In this document: in pieces, positions 21,334 to 44,378 of the stretch
Layout: each line of letters starts with the position of its first letter
Position numbering within the stretch: position 1 is the stretch's first letter
Assembly: GCA_049290195.1 (NCBI GenBank)
Contig: JBATNE010000040.1
Span: forward strand, 10,127 to 74,126
Source: Candidatus Zixiibacteriota bacterium
Lineage (GTDB): Bacteria; Zixibacteria; MSB-5A5; GN15; FEB-12
Direction of reading: 5' to 3'
DNA length: 64,000 bases
Notes under the pieces: generated by a model
What the model saw: the letters and a program-made list of their open reading frames with translations, nothing else
Told to the model about the DNA's origin: nothing
The model's database searches: none
Position numbers and translations under genes: made by a program

Positions 21334-22746
21334 TTGGCAGTGACTGCTAGTTCACGGACGTACCTTTCTCTGCTTGTGGTTGCCTGCACGCTGCTGACGG
21401 GCGGATGCGGATCGATGGCGACTCGCCGGAGTTTCTACCGTCCCATTGCCGAGCAGGTGCGCAAGGGAAACTACGCGGCCGCATCTCTGGCGCTGGACAA
21501 AGCCCGGGACGACGGCAAATTTGACGAGAAGGACCGGTTTCTGTACTTCATGGATGCCGGCCTTCTCGCTCACTATAGCGATTCACTCGACAAGAGCACT
21601 TCGCAGTTGTCGCTTGCAGAGAAGACAAGCGAGGAGCTCTTCACCAAGAGCGTCTCCCGCGCCGCACTCTCCATGCTTCTCAACGACAACGCCCTTGAGT
21701 ATGCCGGGGAGGACTACGAGGTCCTCTATTCCAACGTATTCAAGGCCTTGAATTTCATCTCGGTTGACTCGTTCGACGCGGCCTTTGTGGAAATCCGCCG
21801 GGCAAACCAGAAACTCGAACTTCTCAACCAGAAGTATGCAACAGCGGCTGAGGAGTACCAGAAAGGGAACGATCAGGACTCAAACCACATCCCGCTCACC
21901 TACAAAGCGGTCGATGTTCGGTTCAATAACGATGCCTTCGTTCGATACCTGAGCATGCAGATGTACGCCGCTGCCGGGAAATACGATGACGCCCGCATCG
22001 ACAGCACTGCATTTGTCCAGGCCTTCACCGACCAACCCAATCTGTATCCTTTTCGACAGCCGGAAGTTCGATTTGCGGTCACTGACAGCTCGAAAGCGCT
22101 CCTCTCTGTAGTTGGCTTAACCGGACTCGCTCCGGTAAAGGAAGCGAAGAATTTCAGGATCAGGACTGACAAACAGCTGGATGTCCTTTCTATTCTCTAC
22201 ACGGAACCGACGGGGGAGGAGACAGTATTTGAGAACATCCCGATGAAGCTCAATACCGATCTCTATTTCAAGTTCTCGGTGCCAAGTATCGTCCAGCCTC
22301 TCTCCGTTGTCACAACGGTTCGTGTCATTGTCGACGGAAAAGCGCTCGGAGAGCTGGCGCTTCTGGAGGATGTTGGCATAATTGCCCGCGAATCATTCCA
22401 GGCGCACAAGTCGCTCATCTATCTCAAGTCGATTGCCCGAGCGGTTGTAAAAGGGATTGCCGCCAATCGGGCGAAATCAAAGGCTGACACAGGTGGCTTT
22501 GGCGGCTGGTTGAAGAAGGCCGCAATCGATGTGGCGTCGGACCTGACCGAAAACGCCGACCTTCGATGCGTCCAGTATCTCCCCGGCCAGATTCGAGTGG
22601 CGGATTTCGCCGTCACCCCCGGAGTTCACGATATCGTATTTCAATTTCTTGGGAGCGACGGTCAGGTTGTGTCGGAGAAGATCATCCCCAAGTACAAGGT
22701 ACTCAAGCGCGGTCTGAATCTTCTGGCGGCCGAGTGCCTGAATTAA
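21334..22746 (+). CDS. Lipoprotein of unknown function (TPR-like N-terminus), partner of the LpoB-like gene
   Basis: It starts immediately after the upstream stop with a TTG start. Lipobox-like CTLLTGGCGS. 470 aa. The family was not recognised with certainty; it may be the COG3014-type protein that often accompanies LpoB-like genes. Confidence 0.5.
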   Translation: MAVTASSRTYLSLLVVACTLLTGGCGSMATRRSFYRPIAEQVRKGNYAAASLALDKARDDGKFDEKDRFLYFMDAGLLAHYSDSLDKSTSQLSLAEKTSEELFTKSVSRAALSMLLNDNALEYAGEDYEVLYSNVFKALNFISVDSFDAAFVEIRRANQKLELLNQKYATAAEEYQKGNDQDSNHIPLTYKAVDVRFNNDAFVRYLSMQMYAAAGKYDDARIDSTAFVQAFTDQPNLYPFRQPEVRFAVTDSSKALLSVVGLTGLAPVKEAKNFRIRTDKQLDVLSILYTEPTGEETVFENIPMKLNTDLYFKFSVPSIVQPLSVVTTVRVIVDGKALGELALLEDVGIIARESFQAHKSLIYLKSIARAVVKGIAANRAKSKADTGGFGGWLKKAAIDVASDLTENADLRCVQYLPGQIRVADFAVTPGVHDIVFQFLGSDGQVVSEKIIPKYKVLKRGLNLLAAECLN

Positions 22747-24830: not shown

Positions 24831-25623
24831 TTACATTACCTCCTAGGTTGTCACGACCACATTGGATCGGATTCGTCAACCGTGACCTCTTTGCCACCAG
24901 CATGCTGAATTCCGACACGTTACAATGCGATCCATTCAATTCAATTTTGCGCGGCTATAAGTAGTGAAATCTTTCACAAATGTCAAGGACTACCAATCTC
25001 CGATTCAAACATTTGTCTATTCGTCGGTCAAAAACAAGATAAATCGCGTCTGAAATATGTTAAAATGGTCATAAGACCCCACGACTATTCCGCATGTATC
25101 TGTGAGGTAATGGGTTAATAGGGATAGGATGACCGTTTTCTGTCCCGGGCCGACGCCACCTAAAGATCACCCCCGCGAGGTAAGCGGGGGTGTCCACGCA
25201 AAAAAAGCTAGATAACGATGAAAGCAGGTCTCCAAATGGACTGCGACTTTTGGTCAATCTGTCACTCGAACCACATGGTGGTATTACTGCTCTCTCGCTG
25301 AATGAGGACTAATAACTCTTTGTTGTCAATACAAAAGTCGAGATAGGCACAAGATTTGGATTCAGCCTAGATTGGTGTTGTTTTGTGGGACCGAGAACCG
25401 AGAGGGAACCCGGGCGCCCTATGAGATTCGGCGGAAATGGCAGGTTGCCGACCTTATCTGACAATTCCGGTTCAATATGACCTTCTAACTATACGACAAA
25501 AATGGTCTAAATTGGAGTAATCGCTACATGTTTTTTGACAATTGTGTTGCGCCAGGTATGGCGTGGACTTATTCTAGTAGCCCGAAAATACCACGGTTGA
25601 AAAATACCCCTTAGGGAGGTCCG

Positions 25624-26211
25624 ATGACCCAACAGAGCCGGCAAACTGATCCAACCGAAGCCGAATTGCGCGAAGCATTCTGGCGCCAGGTAGATGTCAT
25701 CCCGGATGGGCACAAGTTAAGTCTCTGTCTTCAATGCGGTACCTGTACCGGAAGCTGCCCCGTTTCCTATGCCATGGATATTACTCCACGCCAGACCATT
25801 GCTCTGTTTCGGGCCGGGATGCTCGAAGACATCCTGCACAGCAGAACCATTTGGATCTGTGCGTCATGCTACTCATGTACGGTGCGGTGCCCGGTCGGCA
25901 TCAAGGTCACTGACACCATGTATGCGCTTAAGCGTCTGGCGATGGAGAAGAAGGTGTATCCGCCCAAATTTGCGGTGCACACGCTGTCGAAGGCGTTTAT
26001 CGAAAATGTTTACAAGTACGGCCGGAACTACGAATTGGGGCTGGGGCTGAAGTATTTCCTGAAGTCAGACTTTATGAAGCTGTTCGCAAATACAGGATTC
26101 GCCCTCACCATGTTTCGACACGGGAGGTTGGGGCTGCTTCCTTCAAAAATCAAACGGGTTGACCAGGTTCGGGCAATTATCAAACGAGCGAACCAGATTC
26201 CGGAGGCGTGA
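25624..26211 (+). CDS. hdrC: Heterodisulfide reductase subunit C-like (2x[4Fe-4S])
   Basis: CLQCGTCTGSCP and CASCYSCTVRCP motifs. SD GGGAGG lies 6 nt upstream of the ATG. Confidence 0.8.
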   Translation: MTQQSRQTDPTEAELREAFWRQVDVIPDGHKLSLCLQCGTCTGSCPVSYAMDITPRQTIALFRAGMLEDILHSRTIWICASCYSCTVRCPVGIKVTDTMYALKRLAMEKKVYPPKFAVHTLSKAFIENVYKYGRNYELGLGLKYFLKSDFMKLFANTGFALTMFRHGRLGLLPSKIKRVDQVRAIIKRANQIPEA

Positions 26212-27092
26212 TGTTGGAATTTGCATACTATCCGGGCTGCAGTCTGGAGACTAGCGGGTCTTCCTACGACAAGTCCATTCGCCAGGTTTTCCAGAAGCTC
26301 GAGATCGGGCTGAAGGAGATCGAAGACTGGAACTGCTGCGGCGCAACTATGTACATGTCAGTGAAGGCGCTGGTCGGTTATTCCATCTCGGCCCGCAATC
26401 TGGCTCTTGCCGAATCCATGGGACTCCCGATCTGTGCGCCCTGCAGCAGCTGCTACACGATTCTCAGAAAGACCAATCGATTTATCGAATCCAACACCAA
26501 AGAACGCGAGCACATAAACGACGCGCTCGGTGCCGCCAACTTGAGTTATACAGGTACGGTTTCGGTCCGCCACCCATTGGACATCCTGGTCAACGACGTT
26601 GGTATCGAGAAGATCGCCGCTGCGTCCAGAGTTAAGCTCACTGGGATCAAGGTCGCGCCATACTATGGATGTCAGGTGGTCAGGCCACAGGGGTTTTTCG
26701 ACGATGTCGACGAGCCCATGACGATGGATCGGCTCTTCCAGGGATTAGGGGCAGAGGTCACTCATTTCCCTGGCAAGGTGAGATGCTGCGGAGGGATGCT
26801 GATGACCACACAGACAGATATCGCCTACAAACTCAATCATACGCTTCTCCAGGCCGCTGTTGACAATGGCGCCGACATTATTGCGACAGCGTGCCCGCTC
26901 TGCCAGATGAACCTTGAAGCGTATCAGGCCAAAATCAACCAGGTATACGGCACGAGTTTTAACATCCCGGTGGTCTATTTCAGTCATCTCGTCGGCATCG
27001 CACTCGGAATTCCGGCGGAAGACATGGGAATGGGGGACTTCGTGATTCCCGCTGATCGATTGACAGCGAAGTTGGCGGAGGTAAGCAGATGA
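26211..27092 (+). CDS. hdrB: Heterodisulfide reductase subunit B-like (two CCG domains)
   Basis: YYPGCS...WNCCGA and YYGCQ...KVRCCGG, i.e. two Cys-rich CCG domains. The start is ATG 26211 (or GTG 26208) and overlaps the hdrC stop. Confidence 0.85.
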   Translation: MLEFAYYPGCSLETSGSSYDKSIRQVFQKLEIGLKEIEDWNCCGATMYMSVKALVGYSISARNLALAESMGLPICAPCSSCYTILRKTNRFIESNTKEREHINDALGAANLSYTGTVSVRHPLDILVNDVGIEKIAAASRVKLTGIKVAPYYGCQVVRPQGFFDDVDEPMTMDRLFQGLGAEVTHFPGKVRCCGGMLMTTQTDIAYKLNHTLLQAAVDNGADIIATACPLCQMNLEAYQAKINQVYGTSFNIPVVYFSHLVGIALGIPAEDMGMGDFVIPADRLTAKLAEVSR

Positions 27093-28069
27093 CTAGTACG
27101 AATGGTCCCAATGGGAATAGTGAAATTCGGGTCGGCGTGTACGTCTGCCACTGCGGCTCAAATATTGCCAAGGTAGTTGATGTTGCCAAAGTAGCGGAGG
27201 CGTGTCGCACATTGCCGGGAGTGGTAGTCTCCAAGCACTATCGCTTCATGTGTTCCGACCCCGGACAGGAGTTAATCCGCAAGGACATCGAAGAATTGGG
27301 GCTTAACCGCGTTGTGGTTGCGGCCTGTAGCCCGCTCATGCACGAGGGAACGTTCAGGAAGGCGGTCGAAACCGCCGGACTCAATCGGTACTACTTCGAA
27401 ATGGCCAACATTCGTGAGCAGGTGAGCTGGGTTACCGATGACGCTCGCGCAGCAACAACAAAAGCCAAAGCGCTGGTGCGGGCCGCTATTGCCCGCGTTC
27501 GCTTCCATGAAGCGCTCGAAATGCGGCGCGTCCCGATCAAGCAGGCAGTTATGGTAGTCGGGGGCGGTATTTCCGGAATCGAAGCGGCCTTGCAGATGGC
27601 GGACGCCGGCTTTCAAGTCTATCTGGTGGAACGGGAAGCCTCGATAGGCGGGCATATGTCTCAGTTTGATAAGACCTTTCCAACCCTTGATTGCGCTGCC
27701 TGTATTCTCACTCCAAAAATGGTCTCGGTCGGCAAGCATCCCAATATCAAGCTAATGACGTGGACTGACATCGAGGAAGTGTCCGGTTCAATCGGCAGTT
27801 TCAAGGTAAAGGTCCGCAGGAAAGCGCGCTACGTGGACGAAAAGCTGTGCAACAGCTGCGGTTCGTGCTACGAGGCTTGCATCAGTCGTCCCTACCCGAA
27901 GAAGAGACGGATGATTCTCGGTGATTGCGTCTTTCGCGAAGGACGACTTCTCGATGTCAAAGACAAGTACATACTGGGCCCAAAACATGACCTCACTGTT
28001 CTGACCGGCGCACAGCCGATGCCCGAAAACGTCGAACCGGCGCCTGACGAAGAGGAAGCACTCGCATGA
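27089..28069 (+). CDS. hdrA: HdrA-like flavoprotein, N-terminal half only (N-terminal [4Fe-4S] domain, first part of the FAD/thioredoxin-reductase fold, first Cys motif of the inserted ferredoxin domain)
   Basis: VGVYVCHCGSNIA..FMCSDPG..VVAACSPLMHE..NIREQVSWV. FAD dinucleotide motif VVGGGISGIEAA with GGHMSQFDKTFPTLDCAACILTPKM. It ends after CNSCGSCYEAC with a non-homologous acidic tail. The start is an ATGA overlap with hdrB. Confidence 0.85.
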   Translation: MTSTNGPNGNSEIRVGVYVCHCGSNIAKVVDVAKVAEACRTLPGVVVSKHYRFMCSDPGQELIRKDIEELGLNRVVVAACSPLMHEGTFRKAVETAGLNRYYFEMANIREQVSWVTDDARAATTKAKALVRAAIARVRFHEALEMRRVPIKQAVMVVGGGISGIEAALQMADAGFQVYLVEREASIGGHMSQFDKTFPTLDCAACILTPKMVSVGKHPNIKLMTWTDIEEVSGSIGSFKVKVRRKARYVDEKLCNSCGSCYEACISRPYPKKRRMILGDCVFREGRLLDVKDKYILGPKHDLTVLTGAQPMPENVEPAPDEEEALA

Positions 28070-28581
28070 CCACTGAAGTTAAGTCCGATTTTGATCTGGA
28101 GAAGCGGATTTCGGAGATTGTGAAGCAATACGGCGCCAAACCATCGGCGCTGATCATGATTCTCCAGGATATTCAAAAGCACTATCGCTACCTGCCCAAG
28201 GATGCAATGGTTGCGGTCTCCAAGAAAATGCGCCTGCCCCTTGCGCAGATATATGGAGTTGCCACGTTCTACCGCTCTTTCAGCCTGACCCCTAAGGGAA
28301 GGAATCATATCTGTGTCTGTACCGGCACGGCCTGTCACGTACGACAGTCGGTCGTCATTCTCGAACACCTTGAACGACAGGTTGGAATCAAGGCCGGAGA
28401 GACGTCGGCGGATCTTGAGTATTCGCTGGAGCGTGTGAACTGTCTCGGCGCCTGCGCGCTCGGACCGTTGGTCACGGCCAATGAGCAGTACTACGGGAAT
28501 ATGACAGTAGCCAAGGCCGATCGGATGCTCGGTGAACTTCGCGGCAAACACGAGAAGTCAACAGCAGGAGAAACGGTATGA
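28066..28581 (+). CDS. NuoE/HoxE/HydC-like thioredoxin-fold [2Fe-2S] subunit
   Basis: ATFYRSF...ICVCTGTACH...VNCLGACALGP. ATGA overlaps at both ends. Confidence 0.85.
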   Translation: MTTEVKSDFDLEKRISEIVKQYGAKPSALIMILQDIQKHYRYLPKDAMVAVSKKMRLPLAQIYGVATFYRSFSLTPKGRNHICVCTGTACHVRQSVVILEHLERQVGIKAGETSADLEYSLERVNCLGACALGPLVTANEQYYGNMTVAKADRMLGELRGKHEKSTAGETV

Positions 28582-30584
28582 GGACAAAAATTCTCACGCC
28601 TCAAGGCCTCAATGACTATCGCGATCAGATTATTGCATCGCGCGATTCGAACAAGATGTCGATAAGCGTCTGTGCCGGCACCGGGTGCCTGGCCTGCGGA
28701 TGTCAGGCGGTCGTCAATGCTCTCCGCAAAGAAATCGCAGCTGCCGGGCTCGAACATGAGGTCGACATCAAGACTACCGGATGCCATGGCTTTTGCGAAC
28801 GAGGTCCACTGCTGTTGATCAATCCGGAAGGCATCTTCTACCAGCGGGTCAAACCGGCTGACGTCAAGTTGATCGTTGATCAGACCGTCAGAGGCGGCCG
28901 ACTGGTGAACAAGCTGCTGTACCGAGATCCTCAAACAGGCGAAGTGATCAAACACGCCGAGGACATTCCGTTCTACAAGAAGCAAATGCGGCTGATCTTC
29001 GGTCGTAACGGCCAGATGGACCCCACGTCTATCGAGGATTACATCGCTCTGGGTGGCTATGGACCCGCGGCAAAGGCGCTGACCCGGATGCAACCGGAGT
29101 CAATTGTCGACCTGATTAAGAAGTCGGGCCTTCGCGGTAGAGGCGGCGGCGGCTTTCCGACCGGGCGCAAATGGGACCACTGTCGTCGGGCCGTCGGAAC
29201 GCCGAAGTATATCATCTGCAATGCCGACGAAGGTGACCCTGGAGCCTTTATGGACCGGTCGCTTCTTGAGGGCAATCCGCACTCCGTCATTGAAGGAATG
29301 ATCATCGGTGCCTATGCCATCGGCGGCAGCGAAGGGTTTGTTTATGTCCGCAACGAATACCCGCTTGCAGTCAAGAATTTGACTATCGCCCTGGAACAAG
29401 CTCATGATTGCGGCCTATTGGGCGACAACATCCTTGGCACGGGATTCAATTTTGACATAGAAGTCTCACGGGGAGGCGGAGCCTTTGTGTGTGGCGAATC
29501 AACCGCACTCATGGCTTCGCTGGAAGGGAAAATGGGGGAACCACGGGCCAAGTACATTCACACTGTCGAACAGGGGCTGTGGGACAAGCCGACCAACCTC
29601 AACAACGTAGAAACCTGGGCCAATGTCCCAATCATCTTGGATCGTGGCGCCGAGTGGTACTCATCGATCGGAACAGAGAATTCCAAGGGGACCAAAGTGT
29701 TCGCCCTGACCGGAAAGATCAACAACACCGGCCTGGTTGAAGTACCCATGGGAATCACGCTTCGGGAAATCCTGTACGATATCGGTGGTGGTGTCCCGGG
29801 GGGCAAGCGATTCAAAGCTGTCCAGACCGGGGGACCATCAGGTGGAACGCTGATTGTGGAAACCGGTGAAGTGGCCATTCATGATAGTATGGTGGCTCAT
29901 GGAGATATTAGGGAAGATGAAAAAGTTGAGAGTCTGCTGGATCTTCCGGTTGATTTCGATGAATTGACCCGTGCCGGCTCAATGATGGGTTCCGGCGGCA
30001 TGATCGTCATGGACAGCGATTCCTGCATGGTGGACGTAGCCAAATACTTCCTGAATTTCCTTCAGGAAGAAAGCTGCGGGAAATGCGTTCCCTGCCGCGA
30101 AGGGATCGTGGTCATGCTCAAGATACTCACCAAAGTGTCTGATGGAGAGGGAACCCTTGAGGATATCGGCTATCTCGAGCAGTTGTCTCAGGTGATCACC
30201 GATACCAGCCTTTGCCAGCTCGGCGGATCGGCACCGAATCCGGTTCTGTCGACTATCAGGTATTTCCGGCAGGAATATTTGGCCCATGTCCTGGATCATC
30301 GCTGCCCGGCAGGTGTCTGCAAGGCGCTGGTGTCGCATGCGATCGATGAATCCTGCACCGGATGCCACGCCTGCTACAAGTCGTGTCCGACACAGGCGAT
30401 TGTCGGAGAAGCCAAGAAACTTCACTACATCGTTCAGGATAAATGCATTCAGTGCGGTGCTTGCTATCAGATCTGCAAGTATGCCAGCATTAAGCGCGTG
30501 AAACGGGGCGAAGGAGAAGCAGTCCAGACGCGGGCAAAGGAACGCTGGTTGGCGCCATCAAAACCTGAACCGGTTGTCGCCTAG
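28578..30584 (+). CDS. NuoF/HoxF/HydB-like NAD(P)H- and FMN-binding subunit with an N-terminal [2Fe-2S] thioredoxin-like domain and a C-terminal 2x[4Fe-4S] ferredoxin domain
   Basis: GLRGRGGGGFPTGRKW, ICNADEGDPGAF, ESCGKCVPCREG, and C-terminal CTGCHACYKSCP / CIQCGACYQIC. The N-terminus reads VCAGTGCLACG..GCHGFCERGP. Confidence 0.88.
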   Translation: MRTKILTPQGLNDYRDQIIASRDSNKMSISVCAGTGCLACGCQAVVNALRKEIAAAGLEHEVDIKTTGCHGFCERGPLLLINPEGIFYQRVKPADVKLIVDQTVRGGRLVNKLLYRDPQTGEVIKHAEDIPFYKKQMRLIFGRNGQMDPTSIEDYIALGGYGPAAKALTRMQPESIVDLIKKSGLRGRGGGGFPTGRKWDHCRRAVGTPKYIICNADEGDPGAFMDRSLLEGNPHSVIEGMIIGAYAIGGSEGFVYVRNEYPLAVKNLTIALEQAHDCGLLGDNILGTGFNFDIEVSRGGGAFVCGESTALMASLEGKMGEPRAKYIHTVEQGLWDKPTNLNNVETWANVPIILDRGAEWYSSIGTENSKGTKVFALTGKINNTGLVEVPMGITLREILYDIGGGVPGGKRFKAVQTGGPSGGTLIVETGEVAIHDSMVAHGDIREDEKVESLLDLPVDFDELTRAGSMMGSGGMIVMDSDSCMVDVAKYFLNFLQEESCGKCVPCREGIVVMLKILTKVSDGEGTLEDIGYLEQLSQVITDTSLCQLGGSAPNPVLSTIRYFRQEYLAHVLDHRCPAGVCKALVSHAIDESCTGCHACYKSCPTQAIVGEAKKLHYIVQDKCIQCGACYQICKYASIKRVKRGEGEAVQTRAKERWLAPSKPEPVVA

Positions 30585-30594
30585 GAGAGTCAAT

Positions 30595-32352
30595 ATGCCA
30601 TTAGTCAAAATCAAAATAGACGGCCAGTCGGTAGAGGTGGAAGAAGGATCCTACGTCCTGGAAGCGGCCAGATCGCTGGGTGTAGATATTCCTACGCTGT
30701 GCTATTACCCGTACATGACCCCCTACGCGGCTTGCCGCATTTGCTGTGTCGAAGCGCGGGCCGGCAATGGCTGGAATAAGATCGTCACCGCCTGCAACTA
30801 TCCGGCGTGGGATGGCTTGGAGATCTGGACCGACACTCCCAGAGTGGTCAATGCAAGGCGCACCAATTTGGAGATGCTTATGGCCAATTGTGCGCCCGTA
30901 GCTGTTCTCCAAAACCTGGGTGAGCAACTCGGCATCAAAGAACCGAGATGGGGAACCGGAGACTACACCTGTATACTCTGTGGACTCTGCGTTCGCATCT
31001 GTGATGAAGTCGTAGGAGCGCATGCTCTCTCATTTGTCAATCGCGGATCGCAGCGCGATGTTTCGACACCTTTCGCTTTAGACTCCGACGCCTGCATTCT
31101 CTGCGGGGCATGCGCAAAGTTATGTCCGACCGGTTACATGAAAATGGAAGACATTGAGGACCGGGTACTGAATCACCGCGAACTCGACCTCAGTCCCAAC
31201 GCCGCAATAACCTTGCAGTTCAGGCAGGCAGTGCCCAATGTGCCGCGGATCTATCGGGAAAACTGCATTCACTTCAAGACCGGCCAATGCATGGTTTGCT
31301 CAAAGGTCTGTCCGAAAGAAGCTATTGCCTTTAATGTCTCGGACGAAATCGAAGAGATCGAAGTTGGCGCTGTCGTGATGGCGACTGGATTCGACAGCTT
31401 TGATCCAACCCCGATGAAGCAGTATGGCTACGGGACGCTCCCCAATGTGGTAACGGCCGAGGAATTCGAAATCATGAACAATGCCGCCGGACCGACCGGC
31501 GGAAAAGTGATCCTGGAAAACGGACGGGAACCCAAGTCCATTGCCATCCTGCACTGCATCGGGAGCCGCGACGAACACCACCACAAGTATTGCAGTCGCG
31601 TCTGCTGCATGTACGCGATGAAGTTTGCCCATCTCGTGACCGAGAAAACCAGCGCTGAAGTCTACCAGTTCTACATCGACATGCGGGCATACGGCAAGGG
31701 GTACGAGGAATTTTATCAGAGAATTCTCCATGAAGGCGTGAATGTTATCAGAGGGAAAGCCGCGGAAGTGGTCTCGACTACTTTCCAACGCAAAGCCGAA
31801 GGGCCGCTCTTGGTCCGGTGCGAAGATACTCTGATTGGCAAGTTCCGCGAAATTCCGGTCGATATGGTAATCCTCTGTACTGCGCTCCAGGCTCGCGCTG
31901 ACGCCAAGGAGGCGGGTCGGAAATTCAACATCTCCACCGGAGCCGATGGCTGGTTTATCGAGGCTCACCCGAAACTGGCGCCGGCGTCGACGACTACCGA
32001 CGGTGTATTTCTGGCCGGCGTCTGTCAGGGCGCCAAAGACATACCGGACTCAGTGGCTCAGGCCGGAGCGGCGGCTGCCCAGGCGATGAAACTTATGTGT
32101 CAGAAAGAAATCCTCATGGACGCCGCCTATGCGGAAATCCAGGATGAACTCTGCTCCGGGTGCAAAATCTGCAACGATATGTGCCCGTATACGGCCATTT
32201 CGTTTGTCGAAGACAAGAAGATCAGCCACATCAATTCCTCACTGTGCAAAGCGTGTGGCACATGTGTGGCGGCATGTCCGTCAGGTGCGATCAAGGGGAG
32301 GCATTTCACCGATGATCAGATATACGCGCAAATCGAAGGGATGCTGGCATGA
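30595..32352 (+). CDS. hdrA: Fusion of a HoxU/NuoG-N-terminal-like [2Fe-2S]+2x[4Fe-4S] module to the HdrA C-terminal half (rest of the FAD fold plus C-terminal ferredoxin domain)
   Basis: The N-terminus reads MPLVKIKIDGQSVEV..LCYYPYMTPYAACRICCVE..CNYP, then CILCGLCVRIC and CILCGACAKLCP. HdrA-type motifs follow: EVGAVVMATGFDSFDP, CIGSRDE..YCSRVCCMYAMK, YIDMRAYGKGYEEFY, GVFLAGVCQGAKDIPDSVAQ, CSGCKICNDMCP and CKACGTCVAACP. I prefer the start at ATG 30595 (SD AGGAG) over 30574. Confidence 0.85.
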   Translation: MPLVKIKIDGQSVEVEEGSYVLEAARSLGVDIPTLCYYPYMTPYAACRICCVEARAGNGWNKIVTACNYPAWDGLEIWTDTPRVVNARRTNLEMLMANCAPVAVLQNLGEQLGIKEPRWGTGDYTCILCGLCVRICDEVVGAHALSFVNRGSQRDVSTPFALDSDACILCGACAKLCPTGYMKMEDIEDRVLNHRELDLSPNAAITLQFRQAVPNVPRIYRENCIHFKTGQCMVCSKVCPKEAIAFNVSDEIEEIEVGAVVMATGFDSFDPTPMKQYGYGTLPNVVTAEEFEIMNNAAGPTGGKVILENGREPKSIAILHCIGSRDEHHHKYCSRVCCMYAMKFAHLVTEKTSAEVYQFYIDMRAYGKGYEEFYQRILHEGVNVIRGKAAEVVSTTFQRKAEGPLLVRCEDTLIGKFREIPVDMVILCTALQARADAKEAGRKFNISTGADGWFIEAHPKLAPASTTTDGVFLAGVCQGAKDIPDSVAQAGAAAAQAMKLMCQKEILMDAAYAEIQDELCSGCKICNDMCPYTAISFVEDKKISHINSSLCKACGTCVAACPSGAIKGRHFTDDQIYAQIEGMLA

Positions 32353-32807
32353 GCTTTGAACCTCGCATCATAGGGTTTCTGTGCAACTGGTGCAGTTACA
32401 CAGGCGCTGACTTGGCCGGAACATCGCGAATGAAGTATCCGGCCAATGTCCATACAATTCGCGTCATGTGCAGCGGACGCGTCGACCCGGGATTCATCCT
32501 CGACTCGTTCAGAAATGGCGCCGATGGCGTTCTCGTGTGTGGATGCCATCCGGGCGACTGCCACTATGTCGAGGGAAACTATAAGTGCCTCCGTCGAATA
32601 CCGATGACGGCAAAAATCGTCGAGGGAATGGGGATTGACAAGCGGCGCCTTCGGCTGGAGTGGGTCTCAGCTTCAGAAGGAGCGCGATACCAGCAGGTCG
32701 TGTCAGAATTCACCGAGCAGATTCGTGCTCTGGGTCCATTTCGGTTGACCGATTGGGCATTTGATCCTTCCAGGGAACTTGCCCACGCTCGTGGGGAGAA
32801 GGAGTAA
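32349..32807 (+). CDS. mvhD: MvhD/FlpD-like hydrogenase delta subunit ([2Fe-2S])
   Basis: IIGFLCNWCSYTGADLAG...VMCSGRVDP..GADGVLVCGCHPGDCHY. Confidence 0.88.
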   Translation: MSFEPRIIGFLCNWCSYTGADLAGTSRMKYPANVHTIRVMCSGRVDPGFILDSFRNGADGVLVCGCHPGDCHYVEGNYKCLRRIPMTAKIVEGMGIDKRRLRLEWVSASEGARYQQVVSEFTEQIRALGPFRLTDWAFDPSRELAHARGEKE

Positions 32808-32810
32808 ATC

Positions 32811-33782
32811 ATGGCAAAGCCTAAACTGGCGATCTATTGGGCGGCATCGTGCGGCGGCTGTGATATCGCCATTCTGGACATAGAAGAGAAGATTCTGGAT
32901 GTCGCCAATTTCTTTGATATCGTCCTCTGGCCCTGTGCGACGGACTTTAAGTACGACGATGTCCGCAAGATGGAAGACAAGTCCATCACCCTGACACTTT
33001 TCAACGGTGCTATCAGAAGCGACGAGAACTACGAGATAGCCGAACTGCTTCGCCGCAAGTCGGTGGTACTGTGTGCGTTTGGAAGCTGCGCATCCGAAGG
33101 CTGCATACCCGGATTGGCCAATTTCTATACCAAACAGGGAATCATGGAATATGCCTACAAGCAGTCTCCATCGACCGTCAACCCCGAAGGTGTCATGCCC
33201 CAGACTTCGGTGCAGGTCCCTGAAGGAAAGTTGACTATTCCCAATCTCTGGAACACCGTCCGCACCCTTCCTCAGGTAGTCGACGTTGACTATATCATTC
33301 CGGGATGTCCACCCCAGTCAGACCAAATTGCTGCCGTAATTTCCGCGGTAATAGACATTCTGCAAAACGGGAAACCGCTTCCCCCAAAGGGAACGGTACT
33401 CGGGGCATCGGAAAAGAGCTGCTGCGACGAATGCACTCGCAAGCGAGATGTGAAGAAAATCAAGAAGTTCATTCGCCCGTTTGAAAAGGTGAGTGATCCG
33501 GAAATCTGCTTGATGGAGCAGGGAATGGTCTGCCTTGGTCCGGCTACTCGAGCCGGCTGCGGAGCAAAGTGCGTCGGAGCGGGAGTGCCGTGTCGCGGAT
33601 GCTATGGTGCCCCAAGCAACGTACACGATCAGGGAGCCAAAATGGCGTCAGCGATCGGCAGCGTCATTGACTCAGTTGATCCCAGGGAGATTGATGAGAT
33701 TATCGCGACTATCGCCGACCCGCTCGGGACCTTTTACCGCTTCAGTCTTCCGGATTCGATGCTTCGGAGGGTACAGTCATGA
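32811..33782 (+). CDS. mvhG: [NiFe] hydrogenase small subunit, cytosolic group 3 type (MvhG-like)
   Basis: KLAIYWAASCGGCDIAILD (proximal cluster motif), GSCASEGCIPG, PGCPP, and C-terminal Cys clusters. No Tat signal. Confidence 0.85.
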   Translation: MAKPKLAIYWAASCGGCDIAILDIEEKILDVANFFDIVLWPCATDFKYDDVRKMEDKSITLTLFNGAIRSDENYEIAELLRRKSVVLCAFGSCASEGCIPGLANFYTKQGIMEYAYKQSPSTVNPEGVMPQTSVQVPEGKLTIPNLWNTVRTLPQVVDVDYIIPGCPPQSDQIAAVISAVIDILQNGKPLPPKGTVLGASEKSCCDECTRKRDVKKIKKFIRPFEKVSDPEICLMEQGMVCLGPATRAGCGAKCVGAGVPCRGCYGAPSNVHDQGAKMASAIGSVIDSVDPREIDEIIATIADPLGTFYRFSLPDSMLRRVQS

Positions 33783-35260
33783 AACAGATTCTGATTGATC
33801 CGATTACCCGCCTCGAGGGGCACGGCAAGATACACCTGTTCATCAACGATGACGGAAGTCTGGCCAATTGCTACTTTCAAGTTCCTGAATTGCGGGGATT
33901 CGAAAAATTCTGCCAGGGACGACCGGTCGAGGAACTGGCGCGCATAACCACCAGAATTTGCGGTGTCTGTCCCGACGCTCACCATATGGCGGCGGCAAAG
34001 GCGGCCGACGCCGTTTACGGAGTTACCATTCCACCGGCGGCCAGAAAACTCCGCGAACTCATGTACAATGCGTTCTATGCCGGTGACCATTGTACGCACT
34101 TCTATGCTCTCGGTGGCCCGGATTTCGTCTGCGGACCTGATGCACCGGCGGCAGAACGGAACATCCTCGGAGTCATTGCCAAAGTCGGTATCGACGCCGG
34201 CAAGAAGGTAATTGCTCATCGAGCCCGCGGCCAGCGGGTGATTGAAATTATCGGCGGCAAAAAGGTTCATCCGGTGACGTCGATTCCCGGCGGTCTCTCC
34301 AAGAGAATCACCAAGGAAGAACAGCAGGAGATCATCAAGATCGGTGAGGAAATGGTCGAATTTGCCAAGTTCACCATTCAGGTCTTGAATGACGTCGTGC
34401 TGGCGAATAAGGCGTACGTCGACATGATTCTCTCTGACGCTTATGCACACAAAACCTATAACATGGGACTGGTTGACAGTAACGGCAAAGTGACCTTCTA
34501 CGACGGTATGGTCCACGTGACCGACCCCGAAGGCGCAGACTTTGAGTCTTACGAGGCAAAGGACTATTTGAATCATGTTGCGGAGCACGTCGAGCCGTAC
34601 AGCTATCTAAAGTATCCTTATCTCAAGAATGTAGGGTGGAAGGGATTTGTCGACGGCAAGGATTCAGGCGTGTACAAGGCGACACCTCTGGCGCGGTTAA
34701 ATGTCTCCAACGGCATGGCCACTCCGCTGGCTCAGGCTGAGTATGAGCGCTTCTACGAGACGCTGACCGGTGAGCGCTCCGGCAAGAAGCCGGTCCACTC
34801 AACGCTCGCCACCCATTGGGCGCGCGTAGTCGAGCTGATGTTCGCCTGCGAGGCAACGCTTCAGCAGGCCAAAGACGACGAAATCACTTCGGACCATGTC
34901 CTCAACGTTCCGACAGGCATTGTTGGCGAGGGGGTTGGTATTGTCGAGGCACCGCGAGGAACGCTCACACATCATTACAAGACCGACAAGAACGGAATTG
35001 TAACCGAGGCGAACCTGATCGTCGGGACTACCAATAATAATGCCCCGATCACGATGTCGATCAAAAAGGCAGCTGAAGGAGTGATCAAGAAAGGGACGAA
35101 GATCACCGACGGTATGCTGAACCGGATCGAAATGGCTTTCCGCGCCTACGACCCCTGCTTCGGCTGTGCCACGCACACTCTGCCCGGCGAGATGCCGCTT
35201 GAGTTGGTGATGCACGATGCTGCTTCAGGTGATATTGTAGATTCCGTCCGGAGAGGCTGA
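33779..35260 (+). CDS. mvhA: [NiFe] hydrogenase large subunit, cytosolic group 3 (MvhA-like)
   Basis: N-terminal RLEGHGKI, L1 motif RICGVCPDAHH, and L2 motif DPCFGCATH followed by a C-terminal extension that would be cleaved by an endopeptidase. Confidence 0.9.
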   Translation: MKQILIDPITRLEGHGKIHLFINDDGSLANCYFQVPELRGFEKFCQGRPVEELARITTRICGVCPDAHHMAAAKAADAVYGVTIPPAARKLRELMYNAFYAGDHCTHFYALGGPDFVCGPDAPAAERNILGVIAKVGIDAGKKVIAHRARGQRVIEIIGGKKVHPVTSIPGGLSKRITKEEQQEIIKIGEEMVEFAKFTIQVLNDVVLANKAYVDMILSDAYAHKTYNMGLVDSNGKVTFYDGMVHVTDPEGADFESYEAKDYLNHVAEHVEPYSYLKYPYLKNVGWKGFVDGKDSGVYKATPLARLNVSNGMATPLAQAEYERFYETLTGERSGKKPVHSTLATHWARVVELMFACEATLQQAKDDEITSDHVLNVPTGIVGEGVGIVEAPRGTLTHHYKTDKNGIVTEANLIVGTTNNNAPITMSIKKAAEGVIKKGTKITDGMLNRIEMAFRAYDPCFGCATHTLPGEMPLELVMHDAASGDIVDSVRRG

Positions 35261-35772
35261 TGAAGCCAATTCTGGTTCTGTGCCTCGGCAACGAGGTATT
35301 GAGTGATGACTCCTTCGGCTATCACGTACACAATCGACTGAGGGAGTCGTTTCAATCATCCGAGACTGCGGATATTGAGTTTTCTTCAATCGCAGGATTC
35401 ACTCTTATCGACGTCTTGCAGGAAAGACGTCACGTGTTAATCGTAGACGCCATCTCCACCGGTGCAAAGGCGGGGTTACTGCACTTCTTTGAAGCGAGTT
35501 TGCTGACACCGTCGCGGCACCTCGTTAATAGTCATCAGATCAGCCTGCCATCGGCAATTAGTCTGGGCATTCAATTTGGATTGGATATGCCGGAGCGCAT
35601 AGATGTATTAGCGGTGGAAGCACAGGATATCGAAACATTATCCGAGTCAATGACGCTCCCCGTCGCACATGCACTTGGAGAAGCGTGTGATCGTGTTCTC
35701 CAATGGGTAAACGGGCGTTCGCAGGAACTTACCAGTCCACCCATGCTGCCTGAAGCAATTCTATCGCACTGA
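35260..35772 (+). CDS. Hydrogenase maturation endopeptidase (HycI/HoxW/FrxA family)
   Basis: VLCLGNEVLSDDSFGYHV and DAISTG motifs. The start overlaps the mvhA stop (TGATG). Confidence 0.8.
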   Translation: MKPILVLCLGNEVLSDDSFGYHVHNRLRESFQSSETADIEFSSIAGFTLIDVLQERRHVLIVDAISTGAKAGLLHFFEASLLTPSRHLVNSHQISLPSAISLGIQFGLDMPERIDVLAVEAQDIETLSESMTLPVAHALGEACDRVLQWVNGRSQELTSPPMLPEAILSH

Positions 35773-39699: not shown

Positions 39700-39728
39700 T
39701 TGACAGTTTGTGCATTATTTCACATACT
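39700..39728 (+). promoter_or_regulatory. Sigma-70-like promoter candidate for the second hydrogenase operon
   Basis: TTGACA (39700-39705), 17 nt spacer, then CATACT (39723-39728), in an AT-rich tract. Confidence 0.35.
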
Positions 39729-39762
39729 TGGTCATTGTCTATCGGAAGATGGAGCTGAAAAT

Positions 39763-40980
39763 GTGGAGAATACACCTGTGAATAATGACCATGGTCAGGC
39801 GGTTACCGACCGAAAAGCAGAATTTCCCAAGAACGCTACACCTAAACCAATGGTGTTGAAACCCGATGGGATCTCGGCACTCATCGATCTGCTCAAGAAG
39901 CAAGGCTATTGCACGATCGGTCCCCAGGTTCGAAATGGGGCAATCGTTCTCGAAGAACTTGAAAAGGGGACTGACCTTCCGATTGGCTGGCAGGACAGCC
40001 AGGATGGTGGGAAATATCATCTCAAGCACACCAAGGCCAAGACCATCTTTGGTTTCAATCATGGGCCACACTCATGGAAACGCTGGTTGCACTCCTCCGG
40101 CCTGTGCTTGTGGAAAGCGAAAAGCGATGGCACAGATTTTAAGGTGCAAGTGACGCCCGAGGAGCCATCGAAATACGCCTTCATTGGTGTTCGCTCATGC
40201 GAACTGCGCGCCATTGAAATTCAAGACAATGTTTTTCTGAATAGCCAATACAAAGATTCCTACTATCAGCGGCACCGCGACGGGAATTTCATCGTCGCTG
40301 TGAACTGCAGTCGCGGAGGAGGAACCTGTTTTTGCGTCTCTACCGACAGTGGTCCTCGAGTGAAGTCCGGCTATGACCTCTTGCTTACTGAAGTATACTC
40401 AGGAACCACCCACTATTTCCTGGTGGAAGTCGGGACTAAGCGAGGTGCCGACGTGATAGCGAATCTCCCGACCACCCCTGCCGAGAGTGCGCAGGTGGAT
40501 CAAGCAGCGGGAATCGTTGCCGAAGCCGCACGTCAAATGGGGCGCATGCTCGAAACTCGTGACATAAAGCAGCTTCTCTATAGAAATCTTGAGCACCCGC
40601 GATGGGCCGAAGTCGCCAGTCGATGCCTGACCTGCGGCAACTGCACGCTGGTTTGTCCCACCTGCTTCTGCACGACTGTCGAAGACGTCACTGACTTGAC
40701 GGGAACGGAAGCCGAACGCTGGCGTCGGTGGGATTCCTGTTTCACGATGGATTTCTCGTACATCCATGGTGGTTCGGTGCGTACCTCACACGGCATGCGC
40801 TATCGTCAGTGGCTCACCCACAAGCTGGCATCGTGGCAGGACCAATTCGGTTCGCTCGGATGTGTCGGGTGCGGCAGGTGTATTACCTGGTGCCCGGTGG
40901 GGATTGACATAACGGAAGAAGCACGAGCAATTCGAGAGAGCGACTCGATTGATCCCATGGCCAATAAAGGGAAGGAGTGA
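39763..40980 (+). CDS. Sulfhydrogenase beta-type subunit (AsrA/HydB-like, 4Fe-4S dicluster protein)
   Basis: CLTCGNCTLVCPTCFC and CVGCGRCITWCPVGI motifs. The start is uncertain: GTG 39763 (GGAG 8 nt upstream) or ATG 39850. The TTG at 39700 in the ORF track coincides with the -35 box and is unlikely to be the start. Confidence 0.75.
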   Translation: MENTPVNNDHGQAVTDRKAEFPKNATPKPMVLKPDGISALIDLLKKQGYCTIGPQVRNGAIVLEELEKGTDLPIGWQDSQDGGKYHLKHTKAKTIFGFNHGPHSWKRWLHSSGLCLWKAKSDGTDFKVQVTPEEPSKYAFIGVRSCELRAIEIQDNVFLNSQYKDSYYQRHRDGNFIVAVNCSRGGGTCFCVSTDSGPRVKSGYDLLLTEVYSGTTHYFLVEVGTKRGADVIANLPTTPAESAQVDQAAGIVAEAARQMGRMLETRDIKQLLYRNLEHPRWAEVASRCLTCGNCTLVCPTCFCTTVEDVTDLTGTEAERWRRWDSCFTMDFSYIHGGSVRTSHGMRYRQWLTHKLASWQDQFGSLGCVGCGRCITWCPVGIDITEEARAIRESDSIDPMANKGKE

Positions 40981-40984
40981 ACCA

Positions 40985-41437
40985 ATGGAAGACCTTAGAC
41001 GGTATCTGTCCGAGCATCCGTTCTTTAGCGGAATGTCGCAGGCGCATTTGGATCTCATGGTCGGATGTGCGTCCAATGTAAAATTCGATGCCGGCCAGTA
41101 TATCGACCGTGCCGGTGAGTTAGCCAACTACTTCTACATTATCCGCGTCGGAAAGGTAGCAGTGGAAATGTACCATCCCGCCGCCGGTGCAATTACGATT
41201 CAGACGGTCGGTGAGGGGGACATTGTCGGCTGGTCCTTCCTTTTCCCACCATTTATCGGCCATTTTGACTCCATTGCCGTTGACCTGACCAGGGCAATTG
41301 CGCTCGATGGCGCCTGCCTGAGAAAGAAAGTTGAAGACGACCACGAACTGGGCTATGAACTGTATCGCCGTTTCGCCCAGATCATGGAACAGAGACTCGA
41401 AAACACACGCGTACAGCTCTTGGATTTATATAAATGA
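40985..41437 (+). CDS. Stand-alone cyclic-nucleotide-binding (CAP effector)-domain protein, no DNA-binding domain
   Basis: [15 protein letters not shown]...[28 protein letters not shown]...GEGDIVGWS. 150 aa. SD AAGGGAAGGAG lies upstream of ATG 40985. There is an ATGA overlap with the next gene. Confidence 0.75.
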
Positions 41438-42306
41438 GTACACCAGTTGTTGCTGAAGCACAGCCTATGTCGGTAGAATCTCACGATCCGTTGTATCCGT
41501 ACATGTTTCGTGTTCGAAAGATTCGATACGACACCTACGATACCTTTACCCTCGATCTCGCGCCGGCCAAAGGAGGAGAGGATTTTGCCTTCCTGCCGGG
41601 GCAGTTTAACATGCTCTATGTTTTCGGCGTTGGGGAGGTCCCAATCTCCATCAGCGGCGATCCCACGCAGACCGGTTCGCTGGTTCATACCACCCGCGCT
41701 GTCGGCACGGTCACCAAAGCGATGAGAAAACTGAAAGTAGGGGACGTCATCGGCGTCCGTGGTCCGTATGGAACCGCGTGGCCGGTGGTCGAAGCCCAGG
41801 GGAATGACATTGTGATCGTTGCCGGTGGTATTGGTTTGGCCCCATTGCGGCCTGCCCTTTACTACGTATTGGCCAATCGCACCAAATATGGCAAAGTCGT
41901 CCTTCTGTATGGTACTCGAACCCCGGCAGATATTCTGTACCGGAAGGAGCTCGAGAACCTTCGGGCGCGCTTTGACCTCGAAGTCCACGTGACGGTGGAT
42001 CGAGCCATGGCCAATTGGCATGGCAATGTCGGGGTAGTGACGAACTTGATACCGAAAGCGCCGTTTGATCCGACCAACACGGTGGCCATGTTGTGCGGCC
42101 CGGAAATCATGATGCGCTTCACGGTTCTGGCCCTGCAGAAGCGCGGAGTCGCGATCGACCAAATCTACCTGACCATGGAACGAAACATGAAGTGCGCCGT
42201 CGGATTCTGCGGTCATTGCCAGTTCGGGCCTATGTTCGTGTGTAAGGACGGACCGGTATTCCGGTACGACAAAATCAAACAGTTCTTCCTGACGAGAGAG
42301 ATATAG
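41434..42306 (+). CDS. Sulfhydrogenase gamma-type subunit (AsrB/HydG/PyrK-like FAD/NAD(P)-binding protein with C-terminal [2Fe-2S])
   Basis: FNR-like fold ([31 protein letters not shown]) and C-terminal [10 protein letters not shown]...VCKDGP. Confidence 0.85.
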
Positions 42307-42308
42307 AT

Positions 42309-43088
42309 ATGGCAAGGGCAGCACGTCCGAAACTGGCAGTCTGGAAATTCTCTTCCTGTGACGGTTGTCAGCTCAGTTTGTTGGATTGCGAAGATGAATT
42401 GTTGGCGGTAGCAGGAGCAGTAGAGATAGCCAACTTTGCCGAAGCGTCACGCAATGTCCAGAAGGGACCTTACGATATTTCACTGGTGGAAGGTTCGATT
42501 ACGACCGCCCACGACGCCGAGCGAATCCATAAGGTTCGCCGGCAATCCAAAGTCCTGATTACGATTGGCGCCTGCGCGACCGCCGGCGGCATCCAGGCTC
42601 TTCGAAATTTCAAGGATGTCAGAGACTACACGTCGATTGTCTATGCATCGCCTGAATACATCGAAACGCTCAATAAATCGACGCCGATCGCCGACCACGT
42701 GTTCGTCGACTATGAACTGCGAGGCTGTCCGATCAGCAAGAAGCAGTTGGTCGAAGTCTTGTGTGCCTTCCTCCACGGCCGGAAACCAATTACTCCGCCT
42801 TACAGCGTCTGCATGGAGTGCAAACGTCGCCAAACAGTCTGTGTCATGGTGGCACAGGGTATTCCCTGTCTTGGCCCGGTCACACAGGCCGGCTGTGATG
42901 CGCTCTGTCCGTCCTATAACCGCGGCTGTTTCGGTTGCTTTGGACCCAAAGAAACCCCCAATACGTCGTCGCTCGCCGATTGGTGGAAGAAACTTGGTGT
43001 CGAAGACAGCGATCTGGTTCGGTCATACCGTACTTATAACGCGTATGCCGACGCATTCCGCAAAGAGAGTGAAACCCATGAAAAGTAA
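42309..43088 (+). CDS. [NiFe] hydrogenase small (delta) subunit, group 3b-like
   Basis: [32 protein letters not shown], and C-terminal Cys clusters ([27 protein letters not shown]). Confidence 0.85.
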
Positions 43089-44367: not shown

Positions 44368-44378
44368 GGGGAATTCAC

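Follow-up and report, generated by a model that had tools for sequence, protein, structure and literature searches.

Electron bifurcation is the means by which strict anaerobes gain access to low-potential ferredoxin without a cost in ATP. Here we describe a ten-gene operon of a Candidatus Zixiibacteriota bacterium (assembly GCA_049290195.1) in which genes for a [NiFe] hydrogenase, a heterodisulfide reductase (Hdr) and an NAD(H)-linked flavoprotein module occur together, and in which the gene for the bifurcating subunit HdrA is divided in two. The operon occupies positions 25624-35772 of a stretch of 64,000 nucleotides (positions 10,127 to 74,126 of the forward strand of contig JBATNE010000040.1); this whole stretch is called the window, all coordinates refer to it, and all features of the operon lie on its plus strand. 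The genes run in the order hdrC, hdrB, the N-terminal part of hdrA, a nuoE-like and a nuoF-like gene, a fusion of a HoxU/NuoG-N-like domain with the C-terminal part of hdrA, mvhD, mvhG, mvhA and a gene for a hydrogenase maturation endopeptidase. An original prediction, made from the DNA letters, had given this order of ten plus-strand open reading frames (ORFs) with identical coordinates, and an ORF check together with Pfam and NCBIfam hidden Markov model searches agreed with it for the order and for the identity of each of the ten products.

The junctions between the genes are likewise as first read. Five are 4-nt overlaps of the ATGA type (at 27089, 28066, 28578, 32349 and 33779), hdrC and hdrB meet in GTGATG at 26208, mvhA and the endopeptidase gene share 1 nt in TGATG (35258-35262), and the other two are gaps of 10 nt ahead of gene 6, which is the fusion gene, and of 3 nt ahead of mvhG. 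For hdrB, the in-frame ATG at 26211 is a more likely start than 26208, because GGAGG precedes it and because Met1 of solved HdrB falls on it in the alignment. For gene 6 the most likely start is ATG 30595, with AGGAGA ahead of it, rather than at the mechanically called TTG 30574, which would overlap nuoF. Both flanks are occupied by opposite-strand genes, a glutamate dehydrogenase gene upstream and a phosphodiesterase gene that ends 6 nt downstream. The intergenic region between the divergent glutamate dehydrogenase gene and hdrC (24831-25623) is the presumed promoter region. A consensus scan of the operon and of this upstream region for promoters and terminators returned the same counts as shuffled sequences, and neither upstream nor inside the operon did any promoter or terminator rise above chance.

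The first two genes encode an HdrC-like protein and HdrB. The hdrC-like gene (25624-26211; TIGR03290, 6.9e-23) specifies 195 amino acids with two CxxCxxCxxxCP motifs for two [4Fe-4S] clusters, both complete and with no cluster cysteine lost. The product of hdrB (26208-27092, probable start 26211), recognised by Pfam and NCBIfam, has two CCG domains, matches solved HdrB (8RVU_b, 1e-48) from one end to the other and keeps 10 of 10 CCG-motif cysteines (C11, C43, C44, C76, C79; C155, C193, C194, C229, C232), that is, both motifs for the non-cubane clusters are complete.

At the operon's other end lie the hydrogenase genes. mvhD (32349-32807; FlpD PF02662, 3.3e-54; VhuD, 5.9e-37) encodes a [2Fe-2S] adaptor of 152 residues, mvhG (32811-33782; VhuG, 8.7e-65) a small subunit of 323 residues with 16 cysteines, and the mvhA-like gene (33779-35260; VhuA, 6e-115) a [NiFe] large subunit of 493 residues. 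The Ni-Fe cysteines of the large subunit are intact: RICGVCPDAHH stands near the N-terminus (C61, C64) and DPCFGCATH (C460, C463) is followed by a C-terminal tail of 27 residues, which suits the protease encoded in the same operon (35260-35772, 170 residues; TIGR00072, 1.7e-27). Compared with solved chains, the large subunit scores 395 bits with 5ODC_F, 377 with 9SW2_F, 370 with 7T2R_D, 347 with 9SFI_g and 312 with 5XF9_D, so that the best matches in the Protein Data Bank, 5ODC_F and 9SW2_F, exceed 7T2R_D and 5XF9_D by a small margin. Together with the FlpD, VhuD and VhuG matches of its partners, the score with 5ODC_F indicates a hydrogenase of the Mvh type (group 3c-like), as had been proposed.

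The NAD(H) module and the divided hdrA gene

The two genes that separate the parts of hdrA had been described as a Hox/Nuo-type NADH diaphorase, and the operon accordingly as a hybrid of group 3c and group 3d logic; neither description withstood comparison with solved enzymes. The first gene, bfuC/hydC/nuoE-like (28066-28581; PF01257, 4.8e-49), encodes a [2Fe-2S] thioredoxin-like subunit of 171 residues that keeps the cysteines of cluster C1 (Cys85, 90, 126, 130). The second (28578-30584) encodes a subunit of 668 residues of the bfuB/hydB type that binds NAD(H) and flavin mononucleotide (FMN); a 2Fe-2S domain stands at its N-terminus and a 2x[4Fe-4S] ferredoxin domain at its C-terminus, and among solved structures 7T2R_B is its nearest relative (E 2.8e-234). 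It matches the solved B subunits of Bfu/HydABC-type enzymes, taken at full length, with 633-783 bits: 783 for 7T2R_B from the NiFe-HydABCSL enzyme of Acetomicrobium mobile, 771 for 9MQX_B from Wor-Bfu, 726, 709 and 640 for 8A6T_B, 7Q4V_B and 7P5H_B from HydABC enzymes and 665 for 9N5U_B from NfnB, with 9BOV_B also in this range. NuoF of complex I reaches about 340-366 bits, and 5XF9_A, the HoxF of a group-3d hydrogenase, 237 bits. Likewise, the NCBIfam equivalog models for HoxE and HoxU stay below their cut-offs (142.6 versus 224 and 124 versus 333).

We transferred the list of cluster ligands of the A. mobile enzyme (Schut et al. 2022) through the alignment with 7T2R_B and find that all five ligand sets of BfuB are present: C500, C503, C506 and C546 for cluster B1, C483, S521, H570, C576 and C581 for B2, C593-C603 and C623-C633 for B3/B4, and C32, C37, C69 and C73 for B5. 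Positions 30024-30320 encode the ligands of B1 together with the diagnostic ones of B2. S521 replaces C476 of A. mobile, a position at which about two thirds of BfuB sequences have Thr instead of Cys; a His in the B2 cluster, here His570, is diagnostic of BfuB, and the non-bifurcating homologues in complex I, the R. eutropha hydrogenase and S. wolfei HydB are without clusters B2-B5 (Schut et al. 2022). Given the similarity to BfuB and the presence of every ligand set, the NuoEF-like pair is, judged by its sequence, a HydBC/Bfu-type bifurcating core and not one of the Hox/Nuo type. The 237 bits of 5XF9_A, the BfuB ligands and the HoxE and HoxU scores lead us to reject a group-3d reading of this module, and what the operon appears to join is HdrA-type with HydBC/Bfu-type bifurcation. 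Relative to A. mobile BfuB, the subunit also carries an insertion of about 25 residues, VETGEVAIHDSMVAHGDIREDEKVES (residues 427-452; 29856-29933), between the FMN/NADH core and the B1/B2 region.

HdrA, one polypeptide in MvhADG-HdrABC, is divided here between 27089-28069 and 30595-32352, with nuoE and nuoF in between. Its N-terminal part (326 residues; HdrA model positions 1-254, NCBIfam) aligns with residues 3-257 of solved HdrA 5ODC_A and 11-265 of 8RVU_a. It contains the N-terminal cluster domain, the first part of the domain for flavin adenine dinucleotide (FAD), which resembles TrxR, and, at its end, RYVDEKLCNSCGSCYEAC, which is Cys motif 1 of the inserted ferredoxin domain. In 31 split orthologues, the most distant at about 57% identity, this orphan motif (Cys254, 257, 260, 264; 27848-27880), identified by alignment to motif 1 of that domain, does not vary, and C20, C22, C55, C80, C202 and C205 are conserved at 100% as well.

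The fusion gene (30595-32352) encodes 585 residues that combine a type-2 BfuA-like domain, seen as a HoxU/NuoG-N-like match, with the C-terminal part of HdrA (HdrA model positions 259-640; solved HdrA from about residue 240 to 650). From its N-terminus, the protein has a 2Fe-2S site (C36, C47, C50, C67), two 4-Cys motifs (C126-136 and C167-177) that align with the F-domain of [FeFe] hydrogenases and BfuA proteins, the HdrA-type linker AITLQFRQAVPNVP, and then the second Cys motif of the inserted ferredoxin domain (Cys224, 232, 235, 239; 31264-31311, by alignment to solved HdrA), followed by the rest of the FAD domain and the C-terminal ferredoxin domain of HdrA. Its Cys motifs, Cys224-239 included, are invariant among 44 sequences. 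The motif of a His-ligated cluster, HxxxCxxCx5C, is not found in the BfuA-like domain, where the corresponding interval holds C99 alone. This cluster presumably equates with A3 of the Bfu nomenclature. Type-2 BfuA proteins are without clusters A3 and A5 (Schut et al. 2022).

In HdrA, residues 145-236 and 315-567 make up the flavin domain, and the inserted ferredoxin domain lies between these segments. Because the N-terminal part aligns with residues 3-257 and the fusion protein with residues from about 240 to 650, it is within this inserted domain that HdrA is cut. The original prediction had described the split and the fusion correctly but had missed this position. Across the two proteins there are four 4-Cys motifs, with room for four [4Fe-4S] clusters, and one of the four is on the N-terminal part; therefore, whichever motifs pair, a dicluster domain must be built from both chains. 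The invariance of the orphan Cys motifs on both halves also means that the halves must reassemble. The hallmarks of the FAD site are shared in the same manner, C202 and C205 being on the N-terminal part and K343 on the fusion protein. K343 is the Lys five residues past the CC motif, assigned by alignment and in part by residue numbers that we take to be those of the 5ODC paper. In the class II benzoyl-CoA reductase (BCRII), the equivalent lysine adjoins the bifurcating FAD (BCRII preprint, 2026).

Structure prediction is consistent with this domain plan. An AlphaFold2 model of the fusion protein alone, built with 44 homologues, has a mean predicted local distance difference test score (pLDDT) of 67.9 and a predicted template modelling score of 0.37, and serves for fold matching at the level of domains, not for distances. 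The BfuA-like N-terminus is modelled at pLDDT 85-93, whereas residues 195-257 are disordered (pLDDT 27-50), as would be expected of a half-domain modelled without its partner, although the shallow alignment may contribute. In Foldseek searches the body of the model matches HdrA (5ODC_A, E 1e-30) and its N-terminus matches 9MQX_A (template modelling score 0.69 on the target, root-mean-square deviation 2.0 A over 185 columns), which is the BfuA of the bifurcating tungsten aldehyde oxidoreductase Wor-Bfu. By sequence motifs and modelled fold, the N-terminal domain thus looks like a type-2 BfuA as defined by Schut et al. (2022).

Distribution and variant loci

Synteny in other genomes had been named as a check on the arrangement, and a scan of one genome per species yielded 79 related loci (L numbers below). 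The ten genes are colinear in 25 of them, each from a species-representative genome, and in 22 they span about 10.0-10.3 kb; many shorter contigs keep the same gene order as far as they reach. The hosts are all metagenome-assembled genomes (MAGs), mostly of Zixibacteria; the closest, L001, is 93% identical, and further Zixibacteria MAGs follow at about 83%. The complete set occurs in Zixibacteria, KSB1, Armatimonadota and Acidobacteriota, and truncated or variant loci in Calditrichota, Eisenbacteria, Aminicenantia and Sumerlaeota. As the same order is conserved in other species, the arrangement is due neither to chance nor to an assembly artefact. The fusion of BfuA with the C-terminal part of HdrA is found in more than 120 full-length clusters of the protein database at 65-94% identity, and an exhaustive search with residues 1-260 found its junction spanned by at least about 15 clusters at 50% identity. 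In several of the related loci, operon genes are broken into adjacent pieces in different frames (L001, where mvhA breaks at residue 249/250, L005, L013, L027, L037 and L079); these are probably assembly frameshifts rather than pseudogenes.

Several variants depart from the ten-gene plan. In six loci (L029, L032, L039, L042, L043, L044) a cassette stands between the N-terminal part of hdrA and nuoE/nuoF, for example at 3237-7744 of L042. It comprises a DRTGG protein, an HATPase_c protein, an [FeFe]-hydrogenase-like protein with a 'FeS' domain (absent from L029 and L032), a DRTGG-like protein of 111 residues, a PHP protein and an HATPase_c::NuoE fusion. A set of DRTGG, HATPase, [FeFe]-hydrogenase-like and PHP genes is, we presume, typical of HydABC operons, and the resemblance of the cassette to it suggests that the Bfu module came by transplant from an operon of the HydABC type. 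In L038, L040, L041 and L043 some 400 residues of a GltD/NfnB-like module (Fer4_20 and Pyr_redox_2) are added to the NuoF-like subunit, which reaches 1060 residues in L041 (6156-9338); this suggests that some versions of the enzyme possess an additional NAD(P)H site.

Other loci keep HdrA in one piece. In Calditrichia, Ignavibacteria and Chloroflexota (L052, L057, L060, L061, L064, L069, L072, L073, L075) a single ORF encodes an HdrA of about 1117-1157 residues with a GltD-like module (Fer4_20 and Pyr_redox_2) at the site where the HdrA of the window is split, and mvhDGA follow; L061 7667-11068 is an example. A Zixibacteria locus (L078, 5646-9377) unites the N-terminal part of HdrA, the GltD-like module, a partial BfuA F-domain and the C-terminal part of HdrA in one chain of 1243 residues, and Dehalococcoidia loci have a canonical HdrA of 654 residues. 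Since the variants share one and the same site, the inserted ferredoxin domain appears as a place where NAD(P)H-linked modules have docked repeatedly.

A putative Mvh-Hdr-Bfu complex and its alternatives

From the genes present, their cofactor motifs, the way in which hdrA is split and fused, and the conservation of these features, we infer the physical assembly, wiring, direction, stoichiometry and substrates of a possible enzyme. The ten genes may specify one cytoplasmic Mvh-Hdr-Bfu complex, in which a group-3c-type hydrogenase and a FAD-containing HdrABC are wired to a HydBC/Bfu-type core with FMN; we hold the case for it to be evenly poised, and the earlier view of a single two-flavin complex linking H2, NAD(H), a disulfide and ferredoxin still reads best, its assembly being presumptive. 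HydBC-type and HdrA-type flavin modules are both encoded, and a gene fusion ties them together. Low-potential electrons leave FAD by way of the inserted ferredoxin domain in the methanogen enzymes and also in BCRII, where this domain feeds BamBC. If the halves of HdrA reassemble around FAD with BfuA fused at motif 2, the BfuA clusters are placed beside this low-potential exit, and the fusion point suggests a connection between HdrA's low-potential branch and the Bfu core.

In the proposed mechanism, H2 would be oxidised at MvhA and its electrons would pass via MvhG and MvhD to the FAD of HdrA, as in 5ODC. There they would be bifurcated, the high-potential electrons going via HdrC to the two non-cubane clusters of HdrB to reduce a disulfide, and the low-potential electrons going through the two-chain ferredoxin domain to BfuA and on to BfuB and BfuC. 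The BfuBC core would then distribute them to NAD+ at the FMN and to ferredoxin at the C-terminal clusters of BfuB. The net reaction, presumably reversible, would be roughly 4 H2 + 2 RSSR' + NAD+ + 2 Fdox -> 4 thiols + NADH + 2 Fdred, where Fdox and Fdred are oxidised and reduced ferredoxin. Zixibacteria RBG-1 has been reported to be without coenzyme M and coenzyme B biosynthesis (Castelle et al. 2013). For illustration, with physiological potentials of -280 mV for NAD and -500 mV for ferredoxin, the mean acceptor potential becomes 55 mV more positive when NAD+ takes half of the low-potential electrons, which by calculation lowers the H2 threshold 72-fold relative to canonical Mvh-Hdr; the potential of the disulfide plays no part in this value. 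We therefore tentatively put forward, with rather less confidence than the complex itself, a bifurcation upon a bifurcation: the low-potential output of the HdrA FAD would pass through the two-chain ferredoxin domain to the Bfu FMN, coupling four substrates in a topology opposite to that of BCRII, with an H2 threshold about 70-fold lower, in a widespread system of sediment bacteria.

Is it conceivable that electrons already of low potential are bifurcated a second time? No obvious physiological need for this presents itself, and several results also weigh against the wiring or the complex as a whole. The position of the fusion is no proof of the wiring, because in BCRII the HydBC-type module feeds a mid-potential input of HdrA. 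Two loci (L028, 2622-5317, and L034, 2304-4993) keep the split and the fusion while nuoE and nuoF are neither between the hdrA halves nor elsewhere in the retrieved DNA. All Hdr and Vhu models of NCBIfam score far below their equivalog cut-offs (TIGR03288 195 versus 345, VhuA 384 versus 800, HdrC 81 versus 160). An AlphaFold2 run on the N-terminal part of HdrA concatenated with the fusion protein, made without an alignment, gave pLDDT 34.9 and was uninformative on reassembly.

The same complex could also work with the Bfu module as its input, NADH and reduced ferredoxin being confurcated at the FMN and fed into HdrA; the outcomes would be H2 evolution or disulfide reduction with NADH and ferredoxin, H2 on the one hand and NADH with ferredoxin on the other serving as alternative donors, or full reverse running. 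Bfu enzymes are reversible, BamGH of BCRII confurcates NADH and reduced ferredoxin and hands the electrons to the HdrA-type BamE, and the variant cassette is an hfs-like sensory set that we take to be tied to fermentative, H2-evolving HydABC operons. The entry point in BCRII, however, is the C-terminal ferredoxin domain with an MvhD-like adaptor, a route that MvhD-MvhGA takes here, whereas it is to the inserted, low-potential domain that BfuA is fused; a reversed HdrA would moreover require thiols as co-donors. We regard this direction of flow as possible though unlikely. A lower rank still goes to a simple NADH diaphorase of the Hox/Nuo type attached to Mvh-Hdr, for which NAD+ would be an extra or alternative two-electron acceptor with no second bifurcation. 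The NuoE, NuoF and HoxU family matches would suit it, and some HydB homologues do not bifurcate (Schut et al. 2022), yet clusters B2-B5, which such homologues do not have, are all kept here together with the diagnostic His, and the match to HoxF is less than a third of that to BfuB in bits, with HoxE below its cut-off. We consider it distinctly improbable.

The loci L028 and L034, with clusters that have no nuoEF, would be in keeping with two or three independent enzymes that share no more than a transcript, namely Mvh-Hdr and a HydBC-like pair serving another partner. Against such independence, the BfuA domain is covalently joined to the C-terminal part of HdrA, nuoEF stands between the halves of one enzyme, the order is conserved across phyla and the junctions overlap, which leaves it very little probability. 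That the split of hdrA is a disrupted pseudogene or an artefact of assembly can, for its part, be considered in view of the frameshift-like breaks in some related MAG loci (L001, L027, L079). In 30 related loci, nevertheless, the ORF of neither half is interrupted and the cofactor cysteines do not vary; start and stop codons also overlap precisely, and we treat this explanation as effectively refuted by conservation.

Known systems, surroundings and significance

All six subunit types and the cofactor motifs of the MvhADG-HdrABC complex of hydrogenotrophic methanogens (group 3c; 5ODC, 8RVU) recur in the operon, including the L1/L2 cysteines of MvhA, the double CCG of HdrB, the dicluster of HdrC, and the FAD and cluster ligands of HdrA with its Lys and Cys pair. 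The operon differs in that its HdrA is made of two polypeptides with a three-part Bfu module at the cut, and in its bacterial host; the site for ferredoxin would presumably now lie on BfuB, with NAD(H) as a further substrate. The large HdrA proteins with an inserted GltD/NfnB-like NAD(P)H domain use the same site, but in a single chain, in contrast to the split gene and the three-subunit FMN module found here; a label such as 'HdrL'-like would fit them, presumably as used in genome work on Desulfobacterium autotrophicum. In sulfate reducers, FlxABCD-HdrABC (NADH dehydrogenase/heterodisulfide reductase) links NAD(H) to a bacterial HdrABC. The concept is the same, although the NAD(H) module of the operon is of the HydBC type and a hydrogenase is present; no Flx-type subunits are seen among the ten products.

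HoxEFUYH (group 3d, 5XF9) shares NuoE-, NuoF- and NuoG-N-like subunits beside a cytoplasmic [NiFe] hydrogenase, but it is without Hdr, its HoxF is without the extra domains of the Bfu-type F subunit, and HoxF and HoxH are more remote from the operon than are BfuB and MvhA (237 versus 783 and 312 versus 395 bits). The Bfu enzymes (7T2R, the A. mobile NiFe-HydABCSL; 9MQX, Wor-Bfu; 8A6T and 7P5H, [FeFe] HydABC) have BfuB/BfuC cores closely related to that of the operon, and the type-2 BfuA of Wor-Bfu is closest to its BfuA-like domain. What sets the operon apart is the module that would feed BfuA, here a complete Mvh-Hdr bifurcating enzyme joined to it covalently by way of HdrA. Schut et al. (2022) do not list this type among their Bfu enzymes, and Hdr, Mvh and Zixibacteria have no entry in their supplementary text.

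Among characterised enzymes the nearest analogue is BCRII of Geobacter metallireducens, Bam[(BC)2DEFGHI]2, which Schut et al. (2022) class as 'Bam-Bfu'. No other characterised enzyme unites a HydBC/Bfu-type module (BamGHI) with an HdrA-type BamE, an MvhD-like BamF and an HdrBC-like BamD. According to the 2026 preprint, which reports cryo-electron microscopy and enzymology, the HydBC-type confurcating BamGH is chained in BCRII to the HdrA-type bifurcating BamE, and this two-module design is termed exceptional among characterised enzymes. The Bfu module of BCRII (BamI) does not use the low-potential exit of HdrA but enters by way of the MvhD-like adaptor and the C-terminal ferredoxin domain; in the operon the Bfu module is attached at the exit and the hydrogenase occupies the MvhD route. 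A [NiFe] hydrogenase also takes the place of the tungsten enzyme BamBC, no AOR-type domain being found in the ten products with Pfam or NCBIfam. BamE is a fused double HdrA, whereas HdrA here is split and not duplicated, and the distal cluster of BamD is degenerate, whereas both CCG motifs of HdrB are intact.

The original prediction could already name no characterised enzyme with this set of subunits, and we too found none in the literature; what it had missed is the precedent of BCRII and the fact that the Zixibacteria cluster was already published, as plain 'MvhADG/HdrABC' (Castelle et al. 2013). A study of Sumerlaeota likewise records group 3c with Hdr and does not remark on the insertion. 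We found no description in the literature of a split HdrA with an inserted HydBC/NuoEF module beside Mvh, though an earlier account may exist. The module families and their combination in BCRII are thus known, while the hydrogenase-linked topology with a split HdrA appears to be undescribed.

Elsewhere in the window, 4 kb downstream of the operon, lies a second cytoplasmic [NiFe] hydrogenase cluster on the plus strand (39700-44867), which looks group-3b/sulfhydrogenase-like. It encodes a Fer4_22 protein, a protein with a cNMP-binding domain, which is unusual in such a cluster, a NAD_binding_1 plus DHODB_Fe-S protein, the small and large subunits and its own HycI-type protease. In spite of the two [NiFe] hydrogenase clusters, no hyp maturation genes are present among the screened window ORFs of at least 150 residues. 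Three large ORFs have no or marginal Pfam matches (12762-16334, minus strand, 1190 residues; 21334-22746, plus strand, 470 residues; 59822-61993, plus strand, 723 residues), two minus-strand genes (2757-4910 and 45981-48236) encode proteins with Por_Secre_tail sorting domains of type IX secretion, which, along with the nearest related genomes, accords with a host of the FCB superphylum or a Zixibacteria-like one, and an Rfam scan of the whole window returned no RNA family matches.

To our knowledge, before the 2026 preprint on BCRII every known bifurcating enzyme had a single bifurcating module. The operon suggests that HdrA-type FAD modules and HydBC-type FMN modules have also been combined around a hydrogenase, at a different point of connection, and it offers a concrete and testable system for the chaining of bifurcation modules. 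The split ferredoxin domain is, in addition, a natural case of a cluster-binding domain rebuilt from two chains. For surveys of metabolism the consequence is practical, in that labelling such clusters 'MvhADG/HdrABC' or 'group 3c' overlooks their NAD(H)-linked module. The uncultured phyla that bear the operon are common in sediments and aquifers. If the proposed wiring is true, a lower H2 threshold would suit sediments poor in H2 and would provide an energetic rationale for bacterial Mvh-Hdr enzymes.

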